Made by a program: the position numbers and the translations under genes. Below the pieces are notes generated by a model. That model was not told the origin of the DNA. It searched no databases and was given only the letters and a program-made list of their open reading frames with translations. Below are positions 7,630-59,493 of a stretch of DNA of 64,000 bases, piece by piece (the stretch's first letter is position 1; the number at the start of each line of letters is the position of its first letter). The DNA comes from Chiloscyllium plagiosum (Eukaryota): NCBI RefSeq assembly GCF_004010195.1, contig NC_057718.1:92887404-92951403 (forward strand), in the 5' to 3' direction.

Positions 7630-7910
7630 AGTTAAAAATCACACAACACCAGGTTATAGTCCAACAGGTTTAATTGGAAGCACACTAGCTTTCGGAGTGA
7701 CGCTCCTTCATCAGGTGATTGTGGAGGGCTCGATCGTAACACAGAATTTATAGCTATAAATTGTGTTACGATCGAGCCCTCCACAATCACCTGATGAAAG
7801 AGCGTCACTCCGAAAGCCTGCGTGCTTCCAATTAAACCTGTTGGACTATAACCTGGTGTTGTGTGATTTTTAACTTTGTACACCCCAGTCCAACACCAGC
7901 ATCTCCAAAT
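7630..7910. mobile_element. Fold-back PLE-type insertion, family A
   Basis: Inverted arms meet with no spacer at 7753/7754 (AATTTATAG|CTATAAATT); TSD CATTCAACATAA at 7618-7629 and 7911-7922; hammerhead motif in each arm. Confidence 0.85.
7683..7717 (-). ncRNA. Minimal type I hammerhead ribozyme motif, family A
   Basis: Minus strand CAC CTGATGA A GGAG CGTCA CTCC GAAA GC TA GTG: core boxes, stem I CAC/GTG, stem II GGAG/CTCC, palindromic AGCT stem III, CUA cleavage triplet. Confidence 0.8.
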
Positions 7911-7952
7911 CATTCAACATAAGACATCTTTGTTCCCCTAATTAGTACTGAC

Positions 7953-8177
7953 TACTGTCAGTTCTGAAATAATGTGGTAGTAGTTCTGTCCTCGTGCATC
8001 CCATGTTATAAGAAAATCGTGTAATAGCAGCACCATTTAAATTAATGGGGCCAGAATTGCGTTATAACCAATACATGGTTTAAAACTTCATGCTTTAGAA
8101 AGAGTGTCCCCAATTCATCAATCGTGTTATAGCGAATTTGTGTTAACAAAACGTGCGTATTTCAACACGACCTGTGC
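7953..8177. mobile_element. Decayed Tc1/mariner (Tigger-like) MITE
   Basis: Imperfect terminal inverted repeats (CTGTCAGTTCTGAAATAATG and CGTATTTCAACACGACCTG) with internal repeats of a CGTGTTATA-like motif. Confidence 0.5.
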
Positions 8178-8204
8178 TTACATTTTATCATTAAGTAAGG
8201 AAAG

Positions 8205-8522
8205 TAGATGTGGCACAGCAGTTAGCACTGCTCCTCACAGCACCAGGGACCTGGGTTCAACTCCAGTTTTGGGTGACTCTCTGCCTTGAGATGGCTGTTC
8301 TTCCTGTGTCTGGGTGAGTTTCCTCCCACACTCCAAAGATGTGCATGTTCGGTGAATTGGCTGTGCTAATTGTCCCAGGATGTGTAGGTCAGGTGGATTG
8401 GCTGTGGTAAATGTGTGGTTACAGGGATTGAATGGGGCCCAGGTTTGTGTAGGATGTTTAGTCAGTCAATGCAGAGTCAATGGGCCAAATGGCCTCCTTC
8501 TGCACTATTGGGATTCTATTCA
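8205..8522 (+). mobile_element. HE1-type SINE, diverged
   Basis: GTGGCACAGCAGTTAGCACTGCT...GGGTTCAACTCC...GGGATTCTAT; matches the other copies. Confidence 0.8.
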
Positions 8523-8599
8523 ATGTGAAATGGGTACATGTTGCACCTTTATTATGGACAAATCGTTATCTTAAAGGTTGCGGACAGTGATTCCTCAAT

Positions 8600-8614
8600 G
8601 CTGCCCCCTCCTGG
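8600..8614 (-). promoter_or_regulatory. Candidate CTCF motif
   Basis: Minus strand CCAGGAGGGGGCAGC, one mismatch to the CCASYAGRKGGCRSY consensus. Motif match only. Confidence 0.35.
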
Positions 8615-9780
8615 AAGTATACAGCTGTCTGGTAGCAGGGCCATCCACCCTGACACAGGTACTGGGGGTCTTTGTAATAAAAATCGAAATCCTAATGCCA
8701 AGTGTAAGGCCTTGCTTCTTTAACTTCCTCATTAACTTCCCAGACCACTTACTGGGCTAATGATGGATTTTTTTAATGTGGCCTAAGTTGACAGCCCTTA
8801 ATGGTGTTGTTGACAATGAAGATCAAACAAACTCTTTTGTTCTTTATGTATCTGTAGACTCAGGAAGAGTGGGATATCCTTCATCTATCTCCAGAGCTTG
8901 GTTTATAACTTGACCCCCAGCCCAGCTCTACTCATCATCATTAATCCGGTACAAATAACCTAAGCGAGTTAGATCAGGGAGCTTGACCAAATGCTCTTAG
9001 ATATTCAGTTTAATGCAGATGGGCCCAACGTTCTCTCATTGTCTGCTGTAGCTTCTTCCTGCATTCTCGCTGTATGTAGATAACTTGTGAATTTTCTTAA
9101 TAGGCATTTTGTCCCAAAGGAGGATTTTAAGGCTCTGTGTTTTGCCTAGTTTGTCTTTCCTGCTACCTTGTGCACACAGTGGTGGGTCACTTTAGCTGCA
9201 ACACAACAATTGCTGATTGGTTTGTTGTGGATAGGGGTGAGACTCCCAGTGCAGAAAGAGGTCATTTGGCCCCTCTTGTTCATGCTAATCTCTCTGTGAG
9301 CACAACTCAGCTAGTACCAGTCTCCTGCCTTTTCAGTGAAAATGTTACAATGGAGATCTTTTCCTGTCTATGAAATGAACTTGGGTGCCAAAATGACAAA
9401 GTGAGCGAATTAATTTCCTTTAATTGTAAGACTAGGCATTCTCCTCCATGTCTCGGAAGGAGAATCACAACATCTGTTGCTTTGGACACCCCCACTCTCT
9501 CTTCCCCCAAATAAAATGGGCAAACCGCATCTCTTACTTGGGTGTGGACGCTTGATCATCCCTGCTCCCGGTGGCAAGTGGTCTGACTGGACTCAAATGA
9601 ATGTCAGTTAAAATCATTGCAGCTGACACTGGAGGATTGGGGTGGAGTGTGTGGGGGTGGGGAACTAACATATCAGGTTTAATTTCTCACCAAAACCCTC
9701 TCAAACACCTCCCCCCCCCCCCCACCCCAGCCCTCTTTTTCCTCATTAGGAAACCAGTACATGTATTTAAACAAGGCAAT

Positions 9781-9795
9781 GCTGCCATCTGCTGG
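9781..9795 (-). promoter_or_regulatory. Candidate CTCF motif
   Basis: Minus strand CCAGCAGATGGCAGC, a full consensus match, outside recognisable repeats. Confidence 0.45.
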
Positions 9796-10029
9796 CTAGT
9801 TTAAATGATGCACTGTTTAAATGATGTCTTCTTCAAAGAAGCAATCATTTCTTGGCTCTTAGTGTGACTATTTCAGAAGAAATAACAACTCCAATACCTG
9901 CCAGACTAAATAAGGCTTATGTAGTACAATCTGTGATGTATACTTCCTGGTAAAATATTAATGTATTGGTTCCCAAAATTGGTAGTCTATTAAAAAAAAA
10001 GTCACTAAAGTAATTTGAATACAGGCAAA

Positions 10030-10200
10030 ATGCTGCTGATGCTGCAAGTCTGAAAAAAAAACCCAGAGAATGCTGGGGAACCTCACAAGGCCTGGTAGTA
10101 TCTGATGAGGTGAGTCATTATGAAATATTAACTTTATTTCTCTCTCTGCAGTTGCTGCCCGACCTGCTGAGTTTCCCTAACTTTCTCTGCGTTTATTCCA
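10030..10200. mobile_element. Old fold-back PLE-type remnant, family C-like
   Basis: GATGCTG...AGAATGCTGGGGAACCTC is inverted against TGCTGCCCGACCTGCTGAGTTTCCC; CTGATGA...GAAATATT lies at the pivot. Confidence 0.55.
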
Positions 10201-10816
10201 CATTTTATCTATTTGTTCTCTGTCCTTAGGAGAACGATAACGAGTGTCATATTCTGGAGATTGTTTAGATTCCTTCAAAATATACTGGTATCAGTTTGTT
10301 GACTTGGTGCTTTCCAAATACTACCTGAGAGATTGAGAAGCACTTCAATGACATTGGATCATTTTATTAATCTTTCAACAGAACATTCTGTCTGTTCAGA
10401 AGCAGTTTTCTAATTACTTTTGGAGTGATCCACTTTTGTGTCTAAAATGGTAATGCTTGCTGTGTCTAAGATCTGAATTGGAGGAGTCAAACTACTCAGC
10501 CTTTTAAGTTTACTCTGCCATTTGATAAGATCACCGCTGATTTTGTTACTCCATATTTCCGCCTGCTCCCAGTAATCTTTTCACTCTCTTGTTTATCGAG
10601 AATCTAACGACCTCTGCCTCAAAAATATTTAAAGGTTCTCCCTCCACCACCTGTTGAGGAACAGACTTCCTTTGTGTGAAAATACAATCCAGCCCCTAGT
10701 TCCAGATTGTGTCAGAAGAGGAAACATCTTTTCCACATCCACCCTGTCAAGATCCCTCAGATACATAACTGTTTCAATCAAGTCTTCCCTTACTGTTCTA
10801 AACACCAGCAGACATA

Positions 10817-10940
10817 AGGCGAAAGTGAAAACTGCAGATGCTGGAGATTAGAGTCGAGACTGTGCTGCTGGAAAAGCACAGCAGGTCAGGCAGCATCCGA
10901 GGGTGCTGCCTGACCTGCTGTGCTTTTCCAGTACCACACT
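10817..10940. mobile_element. Very short fold-back PLE-type insertion, family B
   Basis: CTGGAAAAGCACAGCAGGTCAGGCAGCA is inverted against TGCTGCCTGACCTGCTGTGCTTTTCCAG; TSD CACCAGCAGACATAAG/CACCAGCAGATACAAG (10803-10818, 10941-10956). Confidence 0.85.
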
Positions 10941-11083
10941 CACCAGCAGATACAAGCCTAGCCTATTTTACCTTTCATCACAAGTCAACCAGTCCATTCT
11001 AGTTATTAGTCTAATAAAACTTCTCTGGACTGCTCACAATACATTCATAACCTCCCTTAAATAAAACAACCATACTGTACACA

Positions 11084-11705
11084 TGATTTGGAGACGCTGG
11101 TGTTGGACTGGGGTGTACAAAGTTAAAAATCACACAACACCAGGTTATAGTCAAACAGGTCTAATTGGAAGCACTAGCTTTCGAAGCACTGCTCCTTCAT
11201 CAGGTGTTTGTGGAATTTAAGATTGTAAGACACAGAATTTATAGCAAAAGTTTACAGTGTGGTGTAACTGAAATTATATATTAAAAAAGACCTGGATTGT
11301 TTGTTCAGTCTCTCATCTTTTAGAATGACCATGTTGGTTTCAGCTCTTTCAGATGTAAATCGCAAAACATTGTTTTAAAAGTTACATTCTCAAATGAACT
11401 TTAACAGTGGGCCGACATGACACCAATTGTCAAAGTTCACTTGAGAAGGTAACTTTTAAAAAAATGTTTTGCCATTTACTTATGAAAGAACTGAAACCAA
11501 CATGGTCATTCTAAAAGATGAGAGACTTAACAAACAATCCAGGTCTTTTTCAATATATAATTTCAATTACATCACACTGTAAACTTTTGTTTTAAATTCT
11601 GAGTCTTACAATCTTGTCCTCCACAATCACCCGATGAAGGAACAGCGCTCCAAAAGCTAGTGCTTCCAAATAAACCTGTTGGACTATAACTTGGTGTTGT
11701 GTGAT
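11084..11705. mobile_element. Fold-back PLE-type insertion, family A (arms about 280-320 bp)
   Basis: Arms inverted about 11408-11428; TSD TACTGTACACA at 11073-11083 and 11706-11716. Confidence 0.88.
11172..11206 (-). ncRNA. Minimal hammerhead ribozyme motif, family A
   Basis: Minus strand CAC CTGATGA A GGAGC AGT GCTTC GAAA GC TA GTG. Confidence 0.8.
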
Positions 11706-12286
11706 TACTGTACACAATACTCCTGATGTGATCTCTGTATATCTGAAGCACATTATCTATACTTCTGCATTCAATTCCCCTTGCAATAAACAATAACACT
11801 GTTAGCTTTTCTAATTACTGGCTGAATCTGATACCCACCTTTTATGATTTATTCTGAAGAGTACCAGATCCCTCTTCGTCTCAGAGTTTCTTCAACCTCT
11901 CACCATTTAGACAGACGTTCCTTTCTTAATCTTCCTGCAAACATGGCAGTTTCACATTTTCATGCATTGACATTCCTACATACTCCATTTCTCAAGTCTT
12001 TGGCTATTCACTTAACCTGTACAAATCCCTTACATCCTCTTCACAACTTAATAACAGACGTATCTTTGCCTCATCAACAAAATTAGCAACCGTACCTTTA
12101 GTCCCTTTATCTAAACCATTTATATAAGTTATAAAAATTTCATTAATCATTACTTCTTGCAACAAGAAACGATCTGTTTATATCTACGCTGTTTCGTGTT
12201 AGCCAACTAATCTTCTTTTCATGCCAATCTGCTGCCGCTTACACCATAAACTTTTATTTTCCACTGTGTCCTTTGATCTGGCACCT

Positions 12287-13505
12287 ACATAGAACATAGA
12301 ACATAGAATATACAACTGTGCAGCATAGGAACAGGCCCTTTGGCCCACAATGTTGTGCTGAACATAATCCCAAATTAAACTAATCCCTTCTGCCTGTCCT
12401 TAGCCCTTTTCCTTCCACTCCTTCCATATTCATGTGCTTATCTAAAGGTCTCTTAAATGCCCTTATTGTATCTGCCTCTACGACCATCTCGGCAGTGCAT
12501 TCCACACTCCTATTGCACTCTGTGTAAAAAATTTGCCCACACATCATTTTTGAACTTTCCCTCTTTCACCTTAAATGTGACATTTAGACATTTTAACTGT
12601 GGGAAAAGAATTCTGACCGTCAACCCTATCTATGCATCTCATCATTTTATAGATTTCTATCAAGTCTCCCCTTCTCTCAGCGTCCAGCGCTCTGGAGAAA
12701 ACAACCCGAGTTTTTCTAGCCTCCCCTTATAGCTCATACGCTCTAATCCAGGCTGCATCCTGGTGCATCCCTTTTGCACCCTCTCCAAAGCCTCCACATC
12801 TTTTCTGGAATGTAGCGACCAAAATTGAATGCTATACTCTTAGGTGTGGCCTAATCAAAATCTTATAAAACTGCAACATGACATCCTGAACTCTTGTACT
12901 CAATTCCCCGACAAATAAAGGCAAGTATGCCATTCACCTTTTTTACCAACCTATCTACTTGCATGACCATTTTCAGGGAGTGATGGACTTGGATCCCAAG
13001 ATCCCGCTGTACATCAATACTATTCAGAGTCCTGCCATCAACTGTATACTTTTTCTTAACATTTGATCTCCCAAAATGCAGCACCTCACGCTTACACACA
13101 TTTAACTCTATCTGCCATTTTTCAACCCATATCTGCAAGTGATCTATATCCCGCTGTATCCTTTGACAACCTTCTGCACGCTCCACCACTGAAAACGATC
13201 TTTGTATCGTCTGCAAACTTACTAACCTACCCATCTACATTTTTATCCAAGTCAGTTATATGTATGACAAACAGCAGAGCAACAGTACAGATCCCTGTAG
13301 AACACTACCAGTTACAGACCTCCAGCCTGAAAAACAACCTTTCACCTCTACCGTCTGCCCTCTGTGGGCAAGCCAATTCCGAATCCATGTGGCCAAGTCA
13401 CAATGGATATCATGCATCTTAATCTTCCGGATTGGCCTACCATGTGGGATCCTGTTGAAAGCCTTACCAAAACCACGTACACAACATCCACTGCTCTACC
13501 TTATT
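12287..13505 (-). mobile_element. CR1-type LINE 3' fragment with RT C-terminus
   Basis: (ACATAGA)n tail at 12287; ORF 12863-13234 reads IQRDIDHLQIWVEKWQIELNVCKREVLHFGRSN...QRDLGIQVH. Confidence 0.9.
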
Positions 13506-14264
13506 AAGTGTCTTCTGGAAATTTAAGTATAGTTCATCTATTGGTTCCTTTTTATCCACAGTACATGTTACTTCTTCAAAGAAATCTAATTAATTGGTTA
13601 ATTACAGGTTTCCCCTCAATGTTGATTCTGCCTGACTGGAAAACATTCCATGAATTCCTCAACTTGGCTGTCTTTCCCAAATTGGATTTTCCAGTGAATA
13701 TGCTAATTAAAATCAAACATGTTTATTGCTGCATCATTCTGAAAAACTCTCATTATTTCTTCCTCCCCCCCACCCATGCTGTTGATGGCCTTGCACAGCA
13801 CTCACACGAGTGACTTCCTGCCTTCAATAATTTATCTTCTCCATCCAAACCACTTTTGCAACCTGTTTTTCTGAAATCCCTCTGCATTGTGCTAAAATCA
13901 TCATTAACTAACAGAGCCACCCCTCCACCTTTTCCGAGTTTTCACTCCTTCCGAAATGCACTCTTCAATTTTCAGGTCCCAGTTTGTGTCATTCTGCATG
14001 CATGTCTCTGTCATGGCTACCAGATTGTACTTAGCCATTTCTGTTTACACCCTTGGTTCATCTGCTTGTTGTTTGTAGCCTCTGTAAGGCTATTTTGGGA
14101 TGACTTTCTTTCAATATTAACTGTCGCATATATACATAATTTGTAGATTTTCTTACTCAATAAAGGGTTTTCTTCCCTTCAAACTAAATCTCCACAGAAA
14201 AGAGCAGCAGTGTAGAAGAATGATGTTTTCCATTCGAGAAAGAAAACTCCTAAACTGAGACTAA

Positions 14265-14772
14265 AGTGAGAGATTGTTCAGGTAGAGAGGGCTCAGAAGA
14301 GATTTATCAGGATTTACCAGGGAATGGAGGGTTTGAGTTTCAAAGAGAGGCTGGATAGGCGGGGACCTTTTTCACTGGAATTTAGCAGATTGAGAAGTTA
14401 CTTTATGGAAGTTTATAGAATAATGAGGGATTTAGATAAGGTGAATGACAGGTCTGTTTTCCCTAGAATGGGGGAGATTTCAAGATGAGGGGGCATATTT
14501 TTAAGGTGAGAGGAGAAAGAGTTAAAAACGACATGAGGGCAATGTTTTTATACAGAGAGTAGTTCATGTTTGGAATGAACTTCAGAAAAAGTGGTGGATG
14601 CAGGTACAGTTACAACGTTGAAAAGACACTTGGATAAGTTCCTGAATGAGAAATGTTTGGAGGGATATGGGCCAAGTGCAGGCAGGTGGGACTAGTTCGG
14701 TTTGGGATTATGGATAGCATGGACAGGTTGGATCGAAGGGTCTGTTTCTGTGCTATATAACTCTATGACTCT
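14265..14772 (+). mobile_element. CR1-type LINE 3' fragment
   Basis: Homologous to 2341-2927; ends GGGTCTGTTTCTGTGCTATATAACTCTATGACTCT. Confidence 0.9.
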
Positions 14773-14777
14773 CCTGT

Positions 14778-14988
14778 GAATGCTGGAAATCTCAAACACA
14801 AACAAAGGGAGCTGAAAATAAAGTCAGCAGGTCAGGCAGTGCCCCAGAGGGAAACAGAGTCAACAATACAAATCAATGGCCTTGGATAAGCCAAACCTTT
14901 TTGATGAAGACTCAATGAGGTGAAGCATTGATCTTTGTCCCTGTCCATAGGGGCCTGCCTGAACTATTGGAATTCCGTCAGAATCTGA
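14778..14988. mobile_element. Highly decayed fold-back PLE-type remnant
   Basis: TCAGCAGGTCAGGCAG...ACAGAGTCAAC is inverted against ATTGATCTTTGT...CTGCCTGAACT; TTGATGAAG...TGAAGCATT near the pivot. Confidence 0.45.
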
Positions 14989-15074
14989 GACACTTGCAAA
15001 TATCCAACCATTGGATGATGTAGACAGACCAGGAGCAGATTCTGAGTCTGAGGTTCCAAAATCTCATAAATGCT

Positions 15075-15375: not shown

Positions 15376-15388
15376 GGGAGCGTCTGCG

Positions 15389-15655
15389 ATCCTTACCTGG
15401 TCTGGCTGGCATGTGAGCCTCCTGACCCACAGCTATGTGGTTGACTCTTAACTGTCCACTGGGTCATTAGGGCTATGAAGGCTGCTCCTAGTATTTATTG
15501 CCCTAATGACCCAGATACCAGTTAAGAGTCAACCACATTGCTGTGGGTCTGGAGTCACAAGGTAGGCCAGACCAGGTAAAGATGGAAGATTTCCTTCTCT
15601 AAAGGATATTTTTCTTAAATTCCAGATTTTTATTGAATTCAAATTTCACCACCTC
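15389..15655. mobile_element. Tail-to-tail pair of SINE family 2 fragments
   Basis: 15389-15473 (+) is inverted against 15500-15583 (-); both match 15990-16075. Confidence 0.75.
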
Positions 15656-15772: not shown

Positions 15773-16131
15773 GGGGGATGCAATGGCCTGGTGATAGTAT
15801 TGCTAGATCATTAATGCAGAAACCTAGATAATGCCCCGAGGACCTGGGTTCAAATCCTGCCATAGCTGATGGTGGAATTTGAATTCAGTACAAAATCTGG
15901 AATTAAGTCTAATGACAACCATGAGTCCATTGTTGATTGTTGGGGAAATCCCATCTGGTTTACTAATGCCCTTTAGGGAAGGAAACTGCCATCCTTACCT
16001 GGTCTGGCCTACACATGACTCCAGACCCACAGCAAATATAGTTGACTCTTAATTGCCCACCGGACAATTAGGGTTAGGTAATAAATGTTTGCTTAGCTAG
16101 TGATGCCTTCATTCCTTGAATGAATAAAAAA
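15773..16131 (+). mobile_element. SINE family 2, near full length (tRNA-like head, LINE family 2 tail)
   Basis: B box GGTTCAAATCC; core ATCCTTACCTGGTCTGGCCTAC; tail ends GAATGAATAAAAA; paralogues at 29.8, 36.6 and 44.1 kb. Confidence 0.8.
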
Positions 16132-16460: not shown

Positions 16461-16551
16461 CTGATAGAAGGGCTTTTGGCAGAAACATCGACTCTCCTGA
16501 TCCTCAGATGCTGCCCGACCTGCTGTGCTTCTCCAGCACCAAACTCTTGAC
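16461..16551 (+). mobile_element. Family B PLE-type fragment starting at a decayed hammerhead
   Basis: CTGATAGAAGGGCTTTTGGCAGAAACATCGA...GATGCTGCCCGACCTGCTGTGC. Confidence 0.75.
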
Positions 16552-17060: not shown

Positions 17061-17096
17061 GCAAGTGGTAGGTGGGGTTGTGGTCTGTGATTATTA

Positions 17097-17306
17097 CTGG
17101 GTTGGAAATGTGTTGCTGGAAAAGCGCAGCAGGTCAGGCAGCATCCAGGGAACAGGAGAATCGATGTTTCGGGCATAAGCCCTTCTTCAGGCTTATGCCC
17201 GAAACGTCGATTCTCCTGTTCCCTGGATGCTGCCTGACCTGCTGCGCTTTTCCAGCAACACATTTCCAGCTCTGATCTCCAGCATCTGCAGACCTCACTT
17301 TCTTCA
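17097..17306. mobile_element. Fold-back PLE-type insertion, family B
   Basis: Near-identical inverted arms of about 80 bp; TSD TCTGTGATTATTA at 17084-17096 and 17307-17319; minus-strand CTGAAGA AGGGCTTATGCCC GAAA CATC at the pivot. Confidence 0.9.
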
Positions 17307-23204: not shown

Positions 23205-23787
23205 TACCCCCTCCACACCAACACTCAGTAGCAGCAGTGTGTACTATCTACAAGCTGCACTGCAGAAAAACACCAAGACTCCTTCACTAGCACCTTTCAA
23301 GCCCATGACTGTTACCATTTGGAAGGACAATGGCAGTAGATACATGGTAGCGCCACCACTTCCAAATACTCACCATCCTCATGTTGAAATACATTGCCAT
23401 TCCTTCAATGTCACTTAGAACTCCCTCTCTAAATGTTTTGTGTCTACCTTAAAAGGACTGCCACAGTTTAAGAAGGTAGTTCACTATCACCATCTCAAGG
23501 GCAACTAGGAATGGGAAATAAGTGCTGGCCGAGCAAGTAATGTCCATATCCCATGACCCTAGCCATCACCCTGTTGACATTGAATGGCATTACAGTGGCT
23601 GAATCTCACAATTAATCTCCTGGGGGTTACCATTGATCAGGAACTGAAATGGACTAGTCACAAAATACTGTGGCTATTAGAGCAGGTCAGAGGCTAGAAT
23701 CATTGCAGCAAAAGCCTGACCACCATCTACAAGCCACTAAGCAGGAGAGTGTTGGAATATTCTCAACTTCCTAGATGAGTGCAGTGT
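23205..23787 (+). mobile_element. LINE family 2 (CR1/L2 group) fragments
   Basis: Homologous to the minus-strand copy at 42.4-43.4 kb; 3' end GGGCAACTAGGAATGGGAAATAAGTGCTGGCC near 23500; an upstream piece follows out of order at 23560-23787. Confidence 0.75.
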
Positions 23788-23788
23788 T

Positions 23789-24412
23789 TAGATCAGAGTG
23801 TTGCTGGAAAAGCCCAGCAGGTCAGGCAGCATCCAAGGAGCCAGAAAATCGATGTTTCAGGCAAACGCCCTTCATCAGGAATAGAGACAGGAAGCCTCCA
23901 GGGTGGAGAGATAAATGGGGGGGGGGCGCTGAGGGGGAGGTAGCTGGAAGGTTGGAACTGGGGTAAGATGGGGGAAGGGGAAATGAGGAAACTGGTGAAG
24001 TCCACATTGGTGCCCTGGGGTTAAAGTGTTCTGAGGGGGAAGATGAGGTGTTCTTCCACCAGGCATCGGTGGTGAGGGAGCGATGGTTGAGGAGGCCCAG
24101 GACCTGCATGTCCTCAGCAGAGTGGGAGGGGGAGTTGAAATGTTGGGCCACAGGGCGGTGTGGTTGATTGGTGCGGGTGTCGCGGAGATGTTCCCTAAAG
24201 TGCTCTGCTAGGAGGCGTCCAGTCTCCCCAATGTAGAGGAGACCGCATCGGGAGCAACAGATACAATAAATAACATTGGTGGATTGCAGGTGAAACTTTG
24301 ATGGATGTGGAAGCTCCTTTGGGGCCCTGGATGGAGGTGAGGGAGGAGGTGTGGGCGCAGGTTTTGCACTTCCTGCGGTGGCAGGGGAGGGTGTCAGGAA
24401 GGGAGGGTAGGT
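23789..24412 (-). mobile_element. PLE family B 3' fragment with GIY-YIG endonuclease (Neptune-like)
   Basis: Cys-rich linker CHRRKCKTCAH, then VIYCICCSRCGLLYIGETGRLLAEHFREH; downstream hammerhead ATTC CTGATGA AGGGCGTTTGCCT GAAA CATC (23848-23882, minus strand). Confidence 0.9.
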
Positions 24413-24502
24413 TGATATTGAATAATTTGTACAAAACAAGTGGAATGGAGGAGAGGAAAAGTAAAAAAAATCTAATCTAAAATAAAAAAATAAAAAATAA
24501 AG

Positions 24503-24855
24503 TTACTGTAGTCCTGCCAGAGCTCAGGGTTGCTCTCTCACCACAGAGAAGCAACTGATGGTGGCTTAAGCTGAGGCTGACCACACCCTCTGGTGAGGGG
24601 AGAGACTGGGAAGGAGAGTCCTTCCTGGCAATCTCAGCAGATGGGGTAGGTGAACCCACACTGTTGAAGGGCTTTTGCCTGAAACGTTGATTTTCCTGTT
24701 CCTCGGATTCTGCCTGACCTGCTGTGCTTTTCCAGCACCACTCTAATCTAGAATCTGGTTTCCAGCATCTGCAGTCCTTGTTTTTACCTAGTTGATTTTA
24801 ACCCACACTGTTGACATTACTTTGTATTACAAACCAGCCACCCTGCCACCTTAGA
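24503..24855 (-). mobile_element. tRNA-derived SINE-like element (third family), interrupted
   Basis: Minus head GGCTGGTTTGTAATAC...CAACAGTGTGGGTTCA is B-box-like; sequence is continuous across the 24668-24799 insertion. Confidence 0.5.
24668..24799 (+). mobile_element. Short single-arm family B PLE insertion
   Basis: TSD AACCCACACTGTTGA at 24653-24667 and 24800-24814; the insert begins at hammerhead stem II. Confidence 0.88.
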
Positions 24856-30890: not shown

Positions 30891-31901
30891 AATTTCATTG
30901 TAAAAGTGGAATTGCTCTGAATTCCAAGTTGAATTGTTGGGAATGGAGAACAAAAGGAAATGAGATTTTCAGGCATGAGGGTCATTAAGAAGTAAAGCTC
31001 ATCTCTTGGCTGTAGTCACAATCTTTTAATCATGATCAGAGGAAAACACTTTTCCTCTATTTTCAATGAGAACTTTTTACAAAGACTGTGTAAGAAATTC
31101 CTTTCCCACTACAATGCTGTTTGAACGGACAGATTTCCAGAAGTTAGAAGCTAAATTGTGGCCACACTAGCCATTAGAGACACAGCTAAATGAATCACTT
31201 CTTGGCAAGTTCTCAGAGACTGAGAAAAGAAAAAGGAAGCCAGCTCTGATATCACTACCTGAACAGAAGAAATCAGAATCCGAGACCCAACAGATAACTG
31301 GTTGCGATTAGATTCATGGATTTGACACTGTTGACGCTAGAGATTGCATTCCAGGAAAGGAATGATTAAAGTCATCATGTTGCATGTCAGGATGAGGTTG
31401 TGTTAGCTGAGAATCTTATTAAACACAGAGAATTGCACTTTTGGATTACCAAGCTGGTTAAAAGTTATAGCCGTCAGTTATCTCAACAATTACTCTTACA
31501 AATAATTTATCAGTTTATAACTTCAGATTCTGGCTCCCGCTATTGTTCATACTCAAGTTCCAATTATCCCTGAATTATTCATGTGAACATCTTTGCTTAC
31601 TCTGCTGAGCAACTCTGTCCAATAATGATTGATGGCTGAAATGTCAAATAGCCAATTACACTTGTGCATGTTTGTATTCCCAACTTTGGGTTAAATTGAT
31701 TTTGTAACCTGTACATAACACTATGTGCATGACTTGTCATGTAGTTTCTTCCTTGAGGAATTGACCAGAAGTTCACTTACTTAACAAGTGAACCTATCTG
31801 AGGAGTAATAATTTAATTTGATCTGAAATGCTGAGTGCAACACCGTTTAATGAAGAGACAAACATCATTCATCCCTAATGCCGTGTTGACCCTGTTCGTT
31901 A

Positions 31902-32065
31902 ATGATTTGGAGGTACCGGTGTTGGACTGAGGTGGACAAAGTTAAAAATCACACAACACCAGGTTATAGTCCAACAGGTTTATTTGATGAAGGAGCAGTG
32001 CTCCAAAAGCTAATGCCTCCAAATAAACCTGTTGGATTATGACCTGGTGATGTGGGATTTAAAAC
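31902..32065. mobile_element. Short fold-back PLE-type insertion, family A
   Basis: CCAGGTTATAGTCCAACAGGTTTATTTG is inverted against CAAATAAACCTGTTGGATTATGACCTGG; the plus arm starts at TGATGAAGGAGCAGTGCTCC. Confidence 0.8.
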
Positions 32066-32249: not shown

Positions 32250-33442
32250 TGTTGTGGTCCTGTTCGCCGAACTGGGAATTTGTGTTGCAGACATCTTGTC
32301 CCCTGTCTAGGTGACATCCTCAGTGCTTGGGAGCCTCCTGTGAAGTGCTTCTGTGATGTTTCCTCCGGCATTTATAGTGGTTTGTCTCTGCCGCTTCCGG
32401 TTGTCAGTTTCGGCTGTCCGTTGCAGTGGTCGGTATATTGGGTCCAGGTCGATGTGCTTATTGATTGAATCTGTGGATGAGTGCCATGCCTCTAGGAATT
32501 CCCTGGCTGTTCTCTGTTTGGCTTGTCCTATAATAGTAGTGTTGTCCCAGTCAAACCCATGTTGCTTGTCATCTGCATGTGTGGCTACTAAGGATAGCTG
32601 GTCGTGTCGTTTTGTGGCTAGTTGGTGTTCATGGATGCGGATCGTTAGCTGTCTTCCTGTTTGTCCAATGTAGTGTTTTGTGCAGTCCTTGCATGGGATT
32701 TTGTACACTACATTGGTTTTGCTCATGCTGGGTATCGGGTCCTTCGTTCTGGTGAGTTGTTGTCTGAAAGTGGCTGTTGGTTTGTGTGCCGTTATGAGTC
32801 CCAGTGGTCGCAGTAGTCTGGCCGTTAGTTCGGAAATGCTCTTGATGTATGGTAGTGTGGCTAGTCCTTTGGGTTGCGGCATGTCCTCGTTCTGTTGTCT
32901 TTCCCTTAGGCATCTATTGATGAAATTGCGCGGGTATCCGTTTTTGTACAAAATCCCATGCAAGGACTGCACAAAACACTACATAGGACAAACAGGAAGA
33001 CAGCTAACGATCCGCATCCATGAACACCAACTAGCCACAAAACGACACGACCAGCTATCCTTAGCAGCCACACACGCAGATGACAAGCAACATGAGTTCG
33101 ACTGGGACAACACTACTATTATAGGACAAACCAAACAGAGAACAGCCAGGGAATTCCTAGAGGCATGGCACTCATCCACAGATTCAATCAATAAGCACAT
33201 CGACCTGGACCCAATATACCGACCATTGCAGCGGACAGCTGGAACTGACAACCGGAAGCGGCAGAGACAAACCACTATAAATGCCGGAGGTAACATCACA
33301 GAAGCGCTTCACAGGAGGCTCCCAAGCACTGAGGATGTCACCTAGACAGGGGATGAAACATCTGTAAAACAAATTCCCAGCTTGGCGAACAGAACTACAA
33401 CAACGAGCACCCAAGCTACAAATCTTCTCACAAACCTTGAAC
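32250..33442. mobile_element. Penelope/Poseidon-type PLE (family D), head-to-head 3' halves encoding GIY-YIG endonuclease
   Basis: Minus arm reads open as NGYPRNFINRCL...ATLPYIKSISE...VVYKIPCKDCTKHYIGQTGRQLTIRIHEH...REFLEAWH; plus arm repeats it from YKIPC; TSD TCTTATTGGCTGA at 32237-32249 and 33443-33455. Confidence 0.95.
33326..33365 (+). ncRNA. Minimal hammerhead ribozyme motif, family D
   Basis: GCA CTGAGGA TGTCACCTAGACAGGGGAT GAAA CA TC TGT; the mirror copy at 32287-32326 (-) has different substitutions. Confidence 0.75.
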
Positions 33443-36547: not shown

Positions 36548-36557
36548 ATGTTGAAGG

Positions 36558-49375: not shown

Positions 49376-49480
49376 ATTCCTGATGAAAGGCTCATGCCTG
49401 ATTCGTCGATTCTTCTGCTCCTTGGATGCTGCCTGACATGCTGTGCTTTTCCAGCACCAGACATTTCGACTCTGATCTCG
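49376..49480 (+). mobile_element. Short family B PLE-type insertion starting at the hammerhead
   Basis: ATTC CTGATGA AAGGCTCATGCCT GATT CGTC GATTC...GACTCTGATCTC; the GAAA box is mutated. Confidence 0.8.
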
Positions 49481-51388: not shown

Positions 51389-51840
51389 ACAAATTTGGAA
51401 CAAGGAGTCCAATTCAACCCAGCAAAGCCTGTGGAAGTCTTACTCTCCTTTATCTAGTTCATCTGCTGGGGAATCAATCTACATAGGTAAGCACAGAACC
51501 CAGCCTGGTATAATTAAATATGATACAGAGGAGGGTCTTGGGAATGCTTGGGATCAAGTCCCACCAGCCACAGAGGTGTGTCACAACTTGTTCAAACCAG
51601 TCGATTAACAATAATTTACTCACCACTAGTTAGAAAAACCCAAACACAATAAATTTCCAGATCAGTATTGTAGAAATTTGCAAGTCGAAACTTTGTATTT
51701 ATTCTAGTTATGCTGCTGATTTGTCCAAGTTCCAAACACCATTCAATGTCTATCATACAAAGCAAACTCACAAAAAAACATATTTTAGCTCAACATCTCT
51801 GGACTTGCTCCCCATGAATGTCGGCTTGAATGTTCATCAG

Positions 51841-51931
51841 TCAAGAGTGTGGTGTTGGAAAAGCAGAGCAGGTCAGGCAACATCCGAGGAGCAAGAGAAT
51901 CGATGTTTCGGGCAAAAGCCCTTCATCAGGA
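51841..51931 (-). mobile_element. Short family B PLE-type insertion with hammerhead at its 5' edge
   Basis: Minus strand TTC CTGATGA AGGGCTTTTGCCC GAAA CATC GA; probable TSD GAATGTTCATCAG/GAAGGTTCACCAG. Confidence 0.82.
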
Positions 51932-52504
51932 AGGTTCACCAGGCCAGGGAAAGTCTCCACCCATTCCCACAAGGACCACTATGACTGAAGGAAAAGGGTT
52001 TTGATGGGGCCATTTGCATTCTTTGAGATTAATGCCTTCATCAATCTTTGACTGACATATGGGCTCTTAATCTCTCTGCCACCATTGGACAAAGACAAGG
52101 ATCAAAGATGTAATCGATTACCGGCTTTAATGAGTGTTAAACAGCACTCATTTTTATGACTTCATTGAACCCATCAATTTTTCCCATCTTCTTAATTCCA
52201 AGGTATAAGTTTTTTTGCATGTATGAGTACCTAGCAAGAAATAATTAGGGCAAAAGGGTCCAAAGCAAACCCCCAGAGAAATGAGTTGCATAATTGGAAT
52301 TAAAAGACTGTAAAATGGGAACATCAAAATGGTTTGTGGGGGAAGGGTTAGAGCACTGAGCCGATCAAACCCCTTCTGTTATTCAATGAAATCTAAGAGG
52401 TAACAGCCCTGTGAGATATAATCAGTTTTACTGGGTGACAAAGGCCAAAAAATATTAACACTTTGAACCTCAGTAGGATGCAGTCTTAGGGGTTACAAAG
52501 GGAT

Positions 52505-53719
52505 CAGGATTAGAGTGGTGCTGGAAAAGCACAGCAGGTCAGGCAGCATCTGAATAGCAACAGGTCATGAGGATGGTGCTGAGCTGGAAGGTTGGAACTG
52601 GGGTAAGGAGGGGTGAGGGGAAATGAGAAAACTGGTGAAGTCCATATTGATGCCCTGGGGTTGAACGGTCCCGAGGCGGAAGACGAGATATTCTTCTTCC
52701 ACGTGTCGGGTGGTGAGGGAGTGTTGGTGGAGGAGGCCAAGGACCCGTATGTCCTCAGCAGAGTGGGAGGGGGAGTTGAAATGTTCGGCCACGGGGCGGT
52801 GGGGTTGATTGGTGCGGGTGTCCCGGAGCTGTTGTCTGAAGTGCTCTGTGAGAAGGCGTCTGGTCTCCCCACTGTAGAGGAGACTGCATTGGGAGCAATG
52901 GATACAATAAATGACATGTGTGGAAATGCAGGTGAAACTTTGATGGATGTGGAAAGCTCCTTTGGGACCTTGGACGGAGGTGGAGGGGGAGGTGTGGGCT
53001 CAGTTTTGCAATTCCTGCGGTGCCAGGAGGGGAGGGTGAGTTGTTGGGGGGGTGTGGACCTGACTAGGTGTTCATGGAGGGAACAGTCTCTGGAAAGTGG
53101 ATGGGGTGGTGAGGGAGATATATCCCTGGTGGTGGGGTCCATTTGGAGGTGGCAGAAATGTTGGCGGATGATCATACCAATCAACCCCACTGCTCCATGG
53201 CCAAACATTTCAACTCCCCATCCCACTCTGCCGAGGACATGCAGGTCCTGGGCCTCCTCCACCGCCAATCCCTCACCACACGATGCCTGGAGGAAGAACG
53301 CCTCATCTTCCACCTTGGGACCCTTCAATCCCATGGCATTAATGTGGCCTTCACCAGTTTCCTCATTTCCCCTTACCCCACCTTACCCCAGTTCCAACCT
53401 TCCAGCTCAGTACCATCCTCATGACCTGTCACAACTGTCAATCTTTGTTCCCACCTTTCCATTCCACCCTCATCTCCGACCTATCACCTTCACCCCCACC
53501 TCCATCCACCTATTGCACTCTCAGCTACCTTCTCCCCAGCCCCACCTTCTCCCATTTATCTCTCCATCCCCAAGGCTCCCAGCCTCATTCGTGATGAAGG
53601 GCTTTTGCCTGAAACGTCGATTTTCCTGCTCCTCAGATGCTGCCTGACCTGCTGTGCTTTTCCAGCATCACTCTAATTTTGACTCTAATCTCCAGCATCT
53701 GCAGTCCTCACTTTCGCCT
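52505..53719. mobile_element. Fold-back PLE, family B, with GIY-YIG remnant
   Basis: Minus arm to about 53172 and plus arm from about 53173 both encode HFNSPSHSAED...EEExLxFxLGT; TSD GG(T/C)TACAAAGGGAT at 52491-52504 and 53720-53733; hammerhead at about 53587-53621 with the first C mutated. Confidence 0.92.
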
Positions 53720-54265
53720 GGCTACAAAGGGATGTCACTTCATTGTGTCTTTCATCATTACACCTGTCTGAATCTTGAAAGTGTAGTTTCCAGCATTTAT
53801 CTGTGTCAAGCAGCCAGAAAATCTACCCGCTATCAATAGGGTGCTCAGGTCACTTGTGAAATTCAATGAAAAAAAATTACTGGTTGGTTGCCCCTCCTTT
53901 AATATCCTTTCCATTCTCTCTGGAAAGAATGTCTGATTCTATGCCTGATCACATGTAACAACCCATCATTGGCTATCCCCCAATAGGGCCCATTTGTCCT
54001 CGTTTGTGGTCAGAATTCTATTTCTTAATCACTGGAAGCATATCTAGTCTGTGCTGAATCCACAAGAGCTCTGATATAGAGAGAACTTCCATCTTCTTAG
54101 ATAGTTGCGCTATATATATTGAAGTGTTGCTATTAGTTAAAAACAGGTTGAACTATCTCTATGAAGTGGCTCACAGAACCAGTAGTTCACTAAAAAGTCA
54201 AAACACAGAGTTTGACTGCATTACTGTTAACTCAGAACTATCAACCCATGAAGATCTTTCGAATT

Positions 54266-54589
54266 CGGGTGGTATGGTAGCACAGTGGTTAGCATTGCTA
54301 TTTCACAACCTCAGGGGCCTGGGTTTGATTCCAGCCTCGGGCAACTGTGTGGAGTTTGCACATTCTCCCATGTCTGTATGGGTATCCTCCCACAGTCCAA
54401 AGACACGCAGGTTAGGTGGATTGGCTGTGCAAAATTGCCCATAATGTCTAGTGGTGTGTAGGTTAAGGGATTAGCCATGGCAAATGTAGGGTTAAAAATT
54501 AGGGTGGGTGTGGGTGGGGCACTCTTTGGGGAGTTGGTGTGGACTCAATGGATTAACTAGCCTGCTTCTACACTGTATTGATTCTATGA
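54266..54589 (+). mobile_element. HE1-type SINE
   Basis: GGTAGCACAGTGGTTAGC...GGTTTGATTCC...ACACTGTATTGATTCTATGA. Confidence 0.88.
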
Positions 54590-54843
54590 GTCTGAATATA
54601 TGACTCAAATTATGCAAAGCTTTCTGAAGATCTGTGAATGTTTTGAGTGATATTGGCTTTGGCAAAAAGGTGAAACTGCACAACCTAATTTTGCCAACAA
54701 ACACTCCTCTGAGTGAGCCAACAGGGGATGAATCTAGGGTTCAACATTGCTTGAAAAAAATGGACTGCAGTCACAAGGATCCTTCACAAATGACATTGCA
54801 AAAGGCAGCTTAGCATTGCACGGTATTCATCTGAACCAGGCTG

Positions 54844-54933
54844 CTGAAGAAGGGCTTATGCCCGAAACGTCGATTCTCCTGTTCCCTGGATGCTGCCTGA
54901 CCTGCTGCGCTGTTCCAGCAACACATTTTCAGC
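54844..54933 (+). mobile_element. Short family B insertion starting exactly at an intact hammerhead core
   Basis: CTGAAGA A GGGC TTAT GCCC GAAA CG TC GATT...; the 5' strand of stem I is missing. Confidence 0.85.
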
Positions 54934-55157
54934 GCCTGCCTTATGCAGCCAGACAGAGAGTCCCTGATATTGTTGTGCTTCCCACGATGTACGATCAAGT
55001 TTGGAGGAGCCTATGAGGTTTTTCCAAGGCATTTTCAGTACAAGTTTGAAGTAGGTTTCTTTGTATTTCTTCCAGTGCATACATACACTTGCGCATGTGT
55101 AAAATGCAACTGCATGAAGCCTTACTTATAAGTTCATGAGTTCATGAGATATAGGAG

Positions 55158-55373
55158 GAGAAAGTGAGGTCTGCAGATGCTGGAGATCAGAGATGGAAAT
55201 GTGTTGCTGGAAAAGCGCAGCAGGTCAGGCAGCATCTAGGGAACAGGAGAATCGACGTTTCAGGCATTAGCCCTTCTTCAGGAATGAAGAAGGGCTAATG
55301 CCCGAAACGTCGATTCTCCTGTTCCCTAGATGCTGCCTGACCTGCTGCGCTTTTCCAGCAACACATTTCCATC
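55158..55373. mobile_element. Fold-back PLE-type insertion, family B
   Basis: Near-identical arms; perfect TSD TCATGAGATATAGGAG at 55142-55157 and 55374-55389; hammerheads back to back at the pivot. Confidence 0.92.
55251..55285 (-). ncRNA. Minimal hammerhead ribozyme motif, family B
   Basis: Minus strand ATTC CTGAAGA AGGGCTAATGCCT GAAA CG TC GAT; palindromic ACGT stem III, GUC triplet; stem I is weak. Confidence 0.7.
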
Positions 55374-56705
55374 TCATGAGATATAGGAGCAGAATTAGAC
55401 CGTTCGGCCCATCAAGTCTGCTCTGCCATTCGATCATGGCCGATATGCTCCTCACCCCCATTTTCTTGCCTTCTCCCCTTTACCCTTCAACCCATTACCA
55501 ATCTGTCGAACTCCTCCTTAAATTTACTCACTGTCCCAGCATCCTCCGCACTTTGAGGTAGCCAACTCCACAGATTCACAACCCTTTGGGAGAAGTAGTT
55601 TCTCCTCCACTCTGTTTTAAATTTGTTACCCCTTACCCTAAGACTATGATCTATCATCCCAGAATGCCCCACAAGGGGATGATTCCACTCCACGTCTATT
55701 TTATTCACACATTTTAACGTGTTGAATACCTCAATTTAACCTCCCCTCATTCTTCCAAATTCCAGAGACTCTCAGCTTAAAGTGTTCAATCTCTCTTCCT
55801 ACGACAAACCCTTTATCTCTGGGATCAAACTAATGAACCTCCTCTGAATGGCCTCCAATGCCACTCCATCTTTCCCTAAAAAGGGGACCAAAACTGTGCA
55901 CAATACTCCAGGTGTGGTCTCACCAATACCTTGTATAGTTACAACAATGCATCTTTGCATTTATATTCCATTCACTTTTATCTTCTGTACCTGCACACTA
56001 GTTTTCTGGGACTTATGAATGAATACACCTCGATCCCTCTGCTCCAGAGCACCCCAAAGTCTCTCCCCATTATGATAATTAGGTTGCCTTCCCACATTTT
56101 TCGACCCAAATGCATGACCTTGCACTTATCCACATTAAACTCCATCTACCACATTTTGGCCCACTCTCCCAACCTATCTACATCCCACTTGCAAGGTTCT
56201 TATTTCCTGAATGCAATTTACCATCCTGCCTATATTTGTGTCAACTGCAAATTTGGCTACAGAGCCTTCTCTCCCTGTATCCAAGTAGTTAATATAGATT
56301 GTAAATCGCTGGGGCCCAAGGACTGGACCCTGTGGCACCCCACTAGTTACTTCTGCCATTCAGAAAAAAACTCATTTATTCCGACTCTCTGTTTTCTGTT
56401 CATCAGCCAGTCACCTATCCAAACTAATAAATTACCCCTAATTCCATATAATCCAACCTTGTGAATTAACCTTTTGTGAGGCACCTTAACAAACACCTTC
56501 TGGAAGTTCAGACAAATTACATCTACAGCATTCCCATTATCCTTTTTGCTTCTTACTTCTTTGAAGAACTCTAGCAAATTAGTCAAACATGATTTGCCCT
56601 TCATCAAATCATCCTGACTCTGATGGATAGCATTTTGACTTTCCAAATATCCTGATACTGCTTCCTTGATAATTGATTCTAACACTTTCCCAACAACAGA
56701 TGTTA

Positions 56706-56926
56706 GAGTCGAAAAGTGTGGTTCTGGAAAAGCATAGCAGATCAGGCAGCATTGAGGAGCAGGAGAGTGACTGATTCAGGCATAGGTCCTTCAGCAGGCT
56801 GATGAATGGCTTATTGCACAAAATATCAACTCTCCTGCTCCTGGGAGGCTGCCTGACCTGCTGTGCTTTTCCAGCGCCACCCTTTTCAACTCTGACTTTC
56901 CAGCATCTGCAGCCCTCACTTTCTCA
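56706..56926. mobile_element. Older fold-back PLE-type insertion, family B
   Basis: TSD CAACAACAGATG(T/C)TA at 56691-56705 and 56927-56941; pivot CCTTCAGCAGG|CTGATGAATGGC. Confidence 0.88.
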
Positions 56927-58487
56927 CAACAACAGATGCTAAGCTAACTGGTCCATAATTTCCCTCCCTTTTTGAATACAGGCGTTATATTAGCCATTTT
57001 CCAATCCACTGGAACATTTCCCGTGTCCAGGGAATTTTGGAATATTGTAACCAATGGATCTACTATCCCAGCTGCCACTTCCTTTAATACTCTAGAATGT
57101 AGGCTATTAGGACCGGGGGACTTGTTTGTTCTCAATCCTAACAGTTTGCTTCATACCGTGACTCTATCGATGTTAATTGTTCTAAGTTCTACCTTATCTA
57201 TTGCCTCTGACATGCCTGTTCCAACAGGAATAATACTATTGTCCCCCACCATTAAAACAGAGGCAAAGTATTGATTCAGCATCTCTGCCATCTCAGTGTT
57301 CCCCACTATTAACTGTCCGGTTTCATCTTCCAAGGGGCCAACATTCACCTGAGCGACTCTCTTTCCTTTTATTCACCTACAAAAACTTCTGCTACCCTTT
57401 TGGATATTTTGTGCTAGTTTCTTTCATAATGTACCATGGCTCTTTTTATTACTGTTTAGAATCCCTTTGTTTATGTTTGATACTTTCCCAATTGTCCACC
57501 CTGCCACTGGTCTTTGCTTTGTGATATACCTTAGTTTTTGCCTTTATAATGTTGCTGACTTCCTTGTTTAGCCAAGTATGTTTTTTTTAAACCTCCCTTA
57601 ACATCTTCCGCACTGGGATACATTTTAGTTGTGAGGAATTGAGTAGCTCCTTAAACATCTGCCACTGCTCATCTGCTGTCTTACCATTTCACCTTCCTTC
57701 CCAATCTACTCAGGCCAAATCTGTCCTCATCCTTATATAATTTCCTTTGTTTAATTGCAGAACAAGGCCATGGGACTCCACTTTCTCACCCCCAAACTTG
57801 AATTTTGGATTCCATCATACTATGGTCACTACTCCCTCGAGGATCCTTAACTATGATGTCATCAAGTAATCTCTCCTCATTACACAGAAACAAATCCAGA
57901 GCAGCCTGCTCCCTGGTTAGTTCCACAACATATTGCTCCAAGAAACAATCTCTATTGCATTCAATGAATTCTGTCTCCAGGCTATCCTTGCCAATTTGAT
58001 TCTTCCAATCTGTGTGCATGGTAAAATCACCCATGATTATTGCTGTACCTTTCTTGCAATATTTCCTGTGTTATACTGTGCCCCACTGCAGGCCTATAAA
58101 TTACTCCTACCATGTACTTCTTCCCTTTGCCAATTCTTATTTCTACCCAGACCAATTCCACATCTTGATCTTAATTACTTGTTTGCAGCCTGTACAATGC
58201 TTTGTATCCGGATGGAGAGGTTCTTTCAGCTTGAGAGTGATCAGATCCTTTTATTGATCTCCAAAAGCTCATAGTTAAATGAGCAAAGAAAACAGCAAGT
58301 GGTGGAAATCTGCAATGGAAACAAAATACATTGAAAATGAATCTGAACAGTATCCGTAAAAGAAATGTTGGCATTTTGGCTTGTAGCCTTGCACCAGAAA
58401 GAGAATAATTTGAAAGGATTACTCTGCCAACAATTAACTTCTCTTTCTATTCCAGGTGCTAATTGTGAATTTCTATAATTTTCTGTT

Positions 58488-58776
58488 TAGAATAGATTCC
58501 CTACAGTGTGGAAACAAGCCCTTCGGCCCAACAGGTCCACACCGACCCTCCGAAGAGTAACCCACCCAGACCCATTTCCCTCTGACAAATGCACCTAACA
58601 TTATGGTCAATTTAGCATGGCCAATTCACCTGACCTGCACATCTTGGGACTGTGGGAGGAAACCCATGCAGACACAGGGAGAACGTGCAAACTCCACACA
58701 GACAGTCACCTGAGGCTGCATTCAAATCTGGGACCTTGGTGCTGTGAGGCAGCAATGCTAACCACTGGGCCGCCCC
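58488..58776 (-). mobile_element. HE1-type SINE
   Basis: Reverse-complement copy closely matching 47630-47929. Confidence 0.9.
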
Positions 58777-59048
58777 ATTCCAAAGCTTTCAAGTTTCACA
58801 TCTAAATAAAAGTTGATGGATGATGGTCCAAAGTCACAATTACAGTATAAAGGGTTTGTATGAGGAGGAATTTGCTGTGTACAAGAAAGTTTCCACATTC
58901 AATATGCAGATACATACTGGAGAAGGAGCAATATAGGTAGAGCAAGTGACTGAGGCATCAGTGGGGGAGCACTTTGGGCAAGTGATCATAATTCTACTAA
59001 TTTTAAAATGGAAAAGGATAGAACAGATCAAAAGTTAAAGTTCTAAAT

Positions 59049-59493
59049 TGATTTGGAGGTGCCGGTGTTGGGCTGGGGTAAACAAAATGACACAACACGA
59101 GGTTATAATCCAACAGGTTTATTTCGGGAGCACTCGCTTTTGGAGCGCTGCTCCTTCATCAGGTGATAGTGGAGCAGAATCATAAGTCACAGAATTTATA
59201 GCAACAGGATTGCAGTGTCATGGAATGTGATATTAAACAAATTTAGCTTAAGTCTGTCATGTTTTAGAATAATCATGTTAGTTTTGGTTCCTTCATATGT
59301 AAACCCAGAACGTTTTTAAAGTTACATTCTCAACATAGTGAGGTTAGGTTTGTTCAATTTACATCAGTTGTATGATACTTTAATCTTTTATGATAAATTT
59401 GGTGTCCTATGATCCTATCCCACTAGCTAATTGACAAAGGAGCAGTGCTTCGAAAGCTTGCTCTTCCAAATAAATCTGTTGGACTATAACCTG
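59049..59493. mobile_element. Older fold-back PLE-type insertion, family A
   Basis: The minus arm matches 11084-11400; the plus arm ends AAGGAGCAGTGCTTCGAAAGCTT...CTGTTGGACTATAACCTG. Confidence 0.8.

Follow-up and report, generated by a model that had tools for sequence, protein, structure and literature searches.

The 64,000-nt window of the Chiloscyllium plagiosum genome considered here, drawn from a gapped 3.56-Gb assembly, is studded with inverted repeats whose halves face each other head to head, and it raises the question of what these fold-backs are and how they come to be made. A sequence-only reading had interpreted ten of them as ribozyme-bearing insertions of Penelope-like elements (PLEs). 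All ten pairs are present. Eight of them (7630, 10817, 11084, 17097, 32250, 52505, 55158 and 56706) are flanked, as that reading held, by target-site duplications (TSDs) around both arms, with 10–16 exact or near-exact bases and scores of 9–18; one of 300 random pairs reached a score of 9. At 31902 and 59049 a TSD was looked for and none was found. An eleventh fold-back lies at 23780–24787 (Table 1). Our analysis shows that the fold-backs are real and belong to a known class, being truncated ends of three PLE families, two Neptune-like and one Poseidon-like. We further propose, with a probability of about 70%, that they are dead-end insertions of endonuclease-bearing PLEs, each built at its target by twin priming.

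When the hammerhead-like ends were clustered, they fell into three main families (A, B and C) and two minor ones related to B. Copies encoding reverse transcriptase (RT) and a GIY-YIG endonuclease are present for all three families in the same genome. Long A and B copies extend upstream into GIY-YIG, a linker of the CX4CxxC type and RT motifs, the last lying upstream of linker and GIY-YIG in the long A copies L256, L263 and L264 and in B copies. A CX2-5CxxC linker between RT and endonuclease is the Neptune/Nematis pattern (PMC8557442); the linkers of A and B conform to it and would place both families in either the Neptune or the Nematis clade. Family C is without the Cys linker and its open reading frame (ORF) starts inside the hammerhead; on features alone it would belong to the Penelope/Poseidon clade. 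The closest named protein to its frame, from Chiloscyllium punctatum, is 92% identical. One full-length C copy (L203) is a partial tandem with a whole RT-GIY-YIG frame (RVT_1, E 1.9e-11) that runs from an ATG inside the hammerhead and is broken by a frameshift and stops; its 13-bp TSD was seen by eye, outside the search window. The hammerhead core at 33329, in the 32250 fold-back, contains the ATG that opens the ORF in full-length family C copies. Two near full-length copies (L205 and L206) have an inverted tailed arm and 13-bp TSDs. The fold-back termini are continuous with RT-GIY-YIG frames; no unbroken full-length ORF was found in the families' long copies. A full-length partial tandem of the pseudo-long terminal repeat (pLTR) was seen for family C only.

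Among the ten listed fold-backs, a GIY-YIG frame is kept in two, as the sequence-only reading had counted: at 32250, in both arms, and at 52505; the Pfam match at 32250 is weak (E 0.049) and the 52505 frame gave no Pfam match. The arms that had been called non-coding are the 3' untranslated region (UTR) or pLTR of coding elements. The ribozyme claim stands in part. The minimal hammerhead core pattern occurs in all three families, with AGCT in A and ACGT in B and C as the palindromic tetramer, but an intact core is found in only five of the ten listed fold-backs, the one at 10817 being too short to hold one. Rfam models detected no hammerhead in the window, and Rfam matches to the hairpins were sub-threshold and microRNA-like only.

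To place the window in its genome we surveyed 1.464 Mb (26 kb of N), made up of the window together with the 100 kb to either side of it, and of twelve further blocks of 100 kb from other contigs picked without regard to content. Profiles of families A–E were used; 43 B-profile matches closer to the related families D or E were removed before counting, 47 arms without a terminus were left out, and the local alignment edges of the arms are uncertain by a few bases. A TSD was scored at 9 or above, against a null of 300 mismatched or random flank pairs. The survey yielded 340 terminus-bearing arms, 188 of them in 94 head-to-head pairs and 152 single; neighbouring arms were head to head in 94 cases, tail to tail in four and direct in six. 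Most fold-backs are small (65 of 94 at 300 bp or less), both halves usually measuring about 100–140 nt, and at least one strand carries an intact putative hammerhead core in 55 of the 94. About 6% of the DNA sampled is covered by profile matches to families A, B and C. The spacing of about one fold-back per 6 kb given by the sequence-only reading holds for the window, with 11 per 64 kb, whereas elsewhere there are 83 per 1.37 Mb, or about one per 16.5 kb. Fold-backs make up 38% of terminus-bearing insertions (94/246) and are not, as had been supposed, the majority product. By rough extrapolation the genome may hold about 2x10^5 of them. A first look found more than 100,000 candidates genome-wide for each of the B and C endonuclease regions, figures that are not copy numbers.

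The arms of a fold-back differ in a consistent manner that the sequence-only reading missed. In 87 of 94 fold-backs one arm is tailed and the other tailless (p 6e-19 versus a coin toss), and single arms divide into 74 tailed and 78 tailless. TSDs, mostly 12–16 bases long in the survey, flank 65 of 94 fold-backs versus 2 of 300 mismatched pairs, and were seen at 26 of 152 single arms. In each of the three families the outer ends that they define form two groups, separated by 35–40 profile columns. Unpaired stubs share with fold-back arms both of the 3' ends and the 5' site. The family A terminus can be called sharp and shared, since more than 1,000 contigs in each of three sequencing runs, from three organisms, diverge at 7913, the end of the family A tail. 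In the same three runs, examined over window positions 7000–12000 for empty sites in relatives, no listed contig piece bridged an insertion; repeat copies dominated the alignments.

Because TSDs surround both arms and the arms share subfamily variants, each fold-back arose from one insertion event, and the sequence-only reading was right to treat them as single PLE products. The common subfamily variants shared by the arms number 220 in B, 150 in C and 39 in A, against 75, 30 and 17 for shuffled partners. From each flank, read 5' to 3', each target strand joins an antisense copy of the element beginning at one start site, so that two target-primed cDNAs are the simplest reading. According to this twin-priming model, two staggered nicks 12–16 bp apart would prime two separate cDNAs at the target, each beginning at one of two internal start sites about 35–40 nt apart, and host end-joining would fuse the two cDNA ends head to head. 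The template would be a capped, hammerhead-uncut transcript from the pLTR promoter, in which the start sites would lie about 95–140 nt from the 5' end. Priming there would give run-off ('strong-stop-like') cDNAs, a single one leaving an unpaired stub and two leaving a fold-back, while priming at a downstream copy of the start sites would give long and full-length copies. Most copies would be tiny because priming near the transcript 5' end yields run-off cDNAs of only 95–140 nt. A more specific version, which we hold tentatively and rate a little short of an even bet, is that twin priming is programmed: a protein dimer, acting on a single RNA that is capped and not cut by its ribozyme, would give each nicked strand one start site, with most events being strong-stop-like run-offs near the transcript 5' end.

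Among 48 short fold-backs with a TSD, the junction between the arms shows microhomology of 1–8 nt in 21, filler in 23, a blunt join in 3 and a long overlap in 1, and the filler is often copied locally. Microhomology and filler are the usual look of end-joining. A rival account is a snap-back origin, in which one cDNA, or an antisense RNA, would fold back on itself and be copied, an endonuclease then trimming one end to leave the tail. Antisense-RNA fold-back has been proposed for head-to-head palindromes of the rotifer Adineta vaga (PMC3846280), and the ascription of the tail to endonuclease resolution (PMC8557442) fits such a scheme, as do perfectly symmetrical centres like that at 7630 and the subfamily variants shared between arms. 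Filler between the arms in 23 of 48 junctions speaks against it, and so does arm length. In 32 of the 87 pairs the tailless arm extends beyond the 5' end of the tailed arm by more than 15 nt, which snap-back of a tailed cDNA fails to explain; the tailed arm is the longer in 13, which, together with the G at the sense start described below, antisense self-priming fails to explain. No single folding direction covers all cases. Both arm types, moreover, reach the same 5' site with its extra G, the unpaired stubs show the same ends as paired arms, and few rare variants are found in both arms (6 in B, 2 in A and 5 in C, against 389, 186 and 134 unshared). We therefore regard snap-back as unlikely.

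The 5' ends of the arms offer a second line of evidence for twin priming. Of 225 B arms, 104 have their 5' end within a span of 20 columns at the hammerhead's front edge, as do 32 of 79 A arms. The site of this pile-up lies about 30 nt after TATAAA in family A, which we take to be a TATA box, and at the A of TCATTCC in family B, presumably an initiator-like element. The sequence-only reading had pictured a palindrome around a ribozyme; the arms in fact end upstream of the core, and the predicted cut site, where only 6 B and 2 A arms begin, was ruled out as their 5' end. In long copies of the tested subfamilies, the template base before the A of TCATTCC is C. Counting by hand the first 100 listed matches in positional lists, restricted to cases with a preceding base other than C, we found an extra G in 68 of 100 for family B, whose matches number 4335, and in 21 of 100 one base further in (Fisher p 2e-11). 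Family A gave 56 of 100 listed and 21 of 100, respectively (Fisher p 6e-7). For A and for B alike, the first 20 loci with a G were retrieved. In none of the 40 does the element continue upstream of the G, and apart from one duplicated locus the G-start copies share no upstream flank. By script, 21 of the loci are fold-backs (the G arm being tailless in 12 and tailed in 9) and 19 are single, although a few of the latter look like fold-backs with a short partner. A splice acceptor was ruled out as the source of the G, as the template is without AG there and the preceding base varies. The extra G is as expected from copying of the mRNA cap, and an extra G derived from the cap has been reported for full-length L1 insertions (PMC11702581; PMC2912911).

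The same data could be read without a cap, if the pile-up at the hammerhead edge came from stalling of the RT, or from processing linked to the ribozyme, and the G were a terminal addition or a target preference. In 6 of 20 B loci the G coincides with the final base of the TSD, R2 junctions carry untemplated G and T (PMC13000458), and arm ends are spread over several bases. Target preference and general tailing are nevertheless disfavoured, because the G excess is confined to one base, falling from 68% to 21% one base further in, a pattern repeated in A. With few arms beginning at the cut site and the family A site following a TATA-like box, we consider a cap-free origin improbable, to about the same degree as snap-back. 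As a separate, informal observation, copies with another base in place of the first template base (A) still often have a G before it, as if a cap-derived G had been followed by a miscopied first nucleotide.

Several results weigh against twin priming on a capped transcript. In family C the arms do not pile up at the hammerhead (2 of 36). The G counts are hand counts from positional lists rather than random samples, and by our own judgement of the 40 fetched loci the G is plainly untemplated and without filler in only 4; in the others it follows filler (12), is the last TSD base (6, of which 5 independent), could be a partner-arm base (9) or is ambiguous (9). R2, as noted, adds G and T with no cap involved. 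A C derived from the cap, either inserted or pairing with a G on the other end, would account for all of these classes, but both the start site and the cap are deduced from DNA, the one RNA run examined having yielded 0 reads. No fixed priming order emerges: a 'tailless first' rule, hinted at by the 32 versus 13 cases, is not borne out in a young B subfamily, where the longer arm is tailless in 9 of 20 loci, tailed in 10 and undetermined in one. The arm variants do not tell one template RNA from two, the partner arm being the nearest copy in only 19/102 B, 2/42 A and 8/18 C arms. Finally, the anole Poseidon protein showed no strand difference in start site in vitro (PMC11167929), so that the anole work leaves the strict pairing rule unexplained.

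A different possibility is that the short palindromes are non-autonomous units resembling miniature inverted-repeat transposable elements (MITEs) or short interspersed elements, transcribed and re-copied whole by the PLE protein. Non-autonomous PLE derivatives have been described (PMC8557442; bioRxiv 10.64898/2026.07.22.740005), and one junction, that at 17097, occurs 982 times exactly in the genome; all 12 of the copies fetched have it in one orientation relative to the tail, with the longer half on the tailless side. These twelve copies, however, come from several subfamilies, and inside any one copy the two arms agree. Many other junctions lie between identical flanks (9568 matches, both strands counted), and the junction at 7630 is found nowhere else in the genome. 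The two outer ends correspond to the pair of start sites seen in long elements, and the G-start copies lack a common upstream flank. Since junctions vary and recur in different subfamilies, the fold-backs are not MITEs amplified as units, contrary to the MITE-like picture of the sequence-only reading, and whole-unit copying is a less probable account than either of those above. The same family B stub with the same flank (L275/L276, at G000:C1:3887910 and 3891600) is found twice, 3.7 kb apart, and is a local duplication or an assembly repeat.

That the fold-backs are assembly artefacts or class II MITEs is very improbable, for although the assembly is gapped, with gaps often inside long fold-backs and 5 of 94 sampled fold-backs touching N, TSDs lie outside both arms, the arms mismatch at 1–25% in the window, the tail is on one side only, junctions are diverse, TSD length varies (9–21, mode 12–16) and the termini are continuous with RT-GIY-YIG frames. 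The sequence-only reading was right that the elements are not DNA transposons. Gaps lie at or adjoining the centres of long family C fold-backs (L011, L012, L015, L020 and L028), and long palindromes are likely to be under-assembled for this reason.

The architecture had been presented as unusual for PLEs but is already published. An inverted 5'-truncated copy, a one-sided tail of 30–40 bp and a TSD are standard in endonuclease-bearing PLEs (PMC8557442; PMC3846280; PMC8969392), and the shark elements have all of these features, with RT followed by a C-terminal GIY-YIG, a head-to-head truncated copy, a TSD of variable length around the unit, a pLTR hammerhead motif and a partial tandem (L203). 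They differ from the published units in the size of their halves, usually about 100–140 nt, and in their extrapolated number. A count of tailed and tailless pairing, or a fixed capped 5' end, is not given in the accessible text of two PLE accounts (PMC8557442; PMC3846280). What is likely to be new is one mechanistic handle, namely arm ends pointing to two short cDNAs of the front end of a capped RNA.

The closest biochemical parallel is the anole Poseidon protein PAc, which nicks and extends both strands, uses two RT start sites that bound the tail, is predicted to be a dimer and accepts uncut RNA as a substrate (PMC11167929). Family C likewise starts its ORF inside the hammerhead, and the two end groups 35–40 columns apart match the two RT start sites of PAc; unlike PAc in vitro, the shark genomic data show the two strands using different sites. 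The main text of that study, as far as accessible, offers no explanation of inverted or short copies. Metazoan PLE hammerheads have the same minimal core, with a palindromic tetramer replacing helix III, and are mostly single motifs of truncated copies, with opposite-strand pairs 100–700 bp apart in Schistosoma; cleavage and circular templates were proposed for them (PMC4209133), whereas in the shark the arms stop short of the core, on its upstream side, and seldom begin at the cut site. In L1 twin priming both strands are primed, the TSD is kept, joins show microhomology and run-off ends carry an extra G (PMC2912911; PMC11702581), all as seen or proposed in the shark. The second L1 cDNA is copied from another stretch of the RNA, further upstream, and creates an inversion without duplication; both shark cDNAs would be copied from the same segment and create a palindrome, and would be primed at fixed internal sites, poly(A) being absent. 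Animal non-LTR (long terminal repeat) retrozymes are also small, hammerhead-bearing and pLTR-related, and are present in a chondrichthyan, but they are defined as head-to-tail tandems (bioRxiv 10.64898/2026.07.22.740005), a class that the shark copies, with 6 direct neighbours against 94 head-to-head pairs, do not fit. In a literature whose subscription papers mostly fell outside our coverage, we found no study that invokes twin priming, or a G derived from the cap, for PLEs.

A 2021 survey called the formation of inverted PLE copies and their tail undefined (PMC8557442), and a 2024 in vitro study left the later integration steps open (PMC11167929). The fold-backs are valuable here as a large natural record of the PLE integration reaction and a genome-scale test of a poorly understood class. 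Their countable read-outs (the pairing rule, the 12–16 bp stagger, the run-off base with its G, and avoidance of the cut site) make direct biochemical predictions. Were programmed twin priming true, tail and inverted copy would be two faces of one reaction, and some 2x10^5 natural products would document, to the single base, the start site, the cap and the end-joining step. For annotation, fold-backs can be mistaken for MITEs, and their hairpins attract spurious microRNA matches.

Table 1. Penelope-like fold-backs, unpaired stubs and possible tail pairings in the window
Feature	Positions	Arms (strand)	TSD	Remarks
Family A (Neptune-like) fold-back	7630–7912	tailless 7630–7756 (-), tailed 7751–7912 (+)	7614–7629 and 7907–7922	TSD overlaps tail end; TATA-like box within arms
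Family B fold-back	10813–10940	tailed left (-), tailless right (+)	10 nt, exact	arms too short for hammerhead
Family A fold-back	11084–11705	tailed left (-), tailless right (+)	11 nt, exact	3' UTR arms; intact minimal hammerhead core in tailed arm
Family B fold-back	17097–17306	tailless left (-), tailed right (+)	13 nt, exact	intact core in tailless arm; 2-nt microhomology junction
Family B fold-back, additional	23780–24787	long tailless (-), short tailed 24661–24787 (+)	weak, 9 nt with 1 mismatch	Cys linker and GIY-YIG frame in tailless arm
Family A fold-back, decayed	31893–32065		none found	
Family C (Poseidon-like) fold-back	32250–33442	long tailless 32250–32953 (-), tailed 32945–33442 (+)	13 nt, exact	
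Family B fold-back	52505–53722	long tailless (-), tailed 53176–53722 (+)	11 nt, exact	GIY-YIG frame and internal deletion in tailless arm
Family B fold-back	55158–55373	tailed left (-), tailless right (+)	16 nt, exact	tailed arm with intact core, reaching the putative start site
Family B fold-back, older	56703–56926		12 nt, exact	arm identity 75%
Family A fold-back	59048–59494	tailed left (-), decayed tailless right	none found	
Single unpaired family B tailless stub	54844–54930	(+)		begins at hammerhead
Similar single family B stub	16466–16550	(+)		
Similar single family B stub	49376–49479	(+)		
Similar single family B stub	51839–51932	(-)		
Possible tail-to-upstream pairing	7780–7912			
Possible tail-to-upstream pairing	33320–33442			
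Possible tail-to-upstream pairing	55160–55290			

In all three families the tail can pair, over 7–9 bp, with sequence upstream of the tailless end, placing the inner start site in a loop (examples in Table 1). Folding z-scores for this stem range from -0.2 to -2.3, and there was either too little covariation or no match to the pattern; we do not claim an RNA stem.

The window holds other inverted repeats. Two arms of the related family E face each other in a decayed pair at 10020–10205, which has a degenerate hammerhead at 10102 and was left out of the fold-back count. A 207-bp inverted pair of another repeat (15383–15589, with a related copy at 15970–16055) matched none of the five PLE profiles and has no TSD. 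Inverted pairs of old fragments resembling long interspersed elements (LINEs), at 1959–2793, 2410–6131 and 12322–14754, are 70–77% identical and look like independent insertions, and a LINE-like frame at 56350–56775 has an RVT_1 match.

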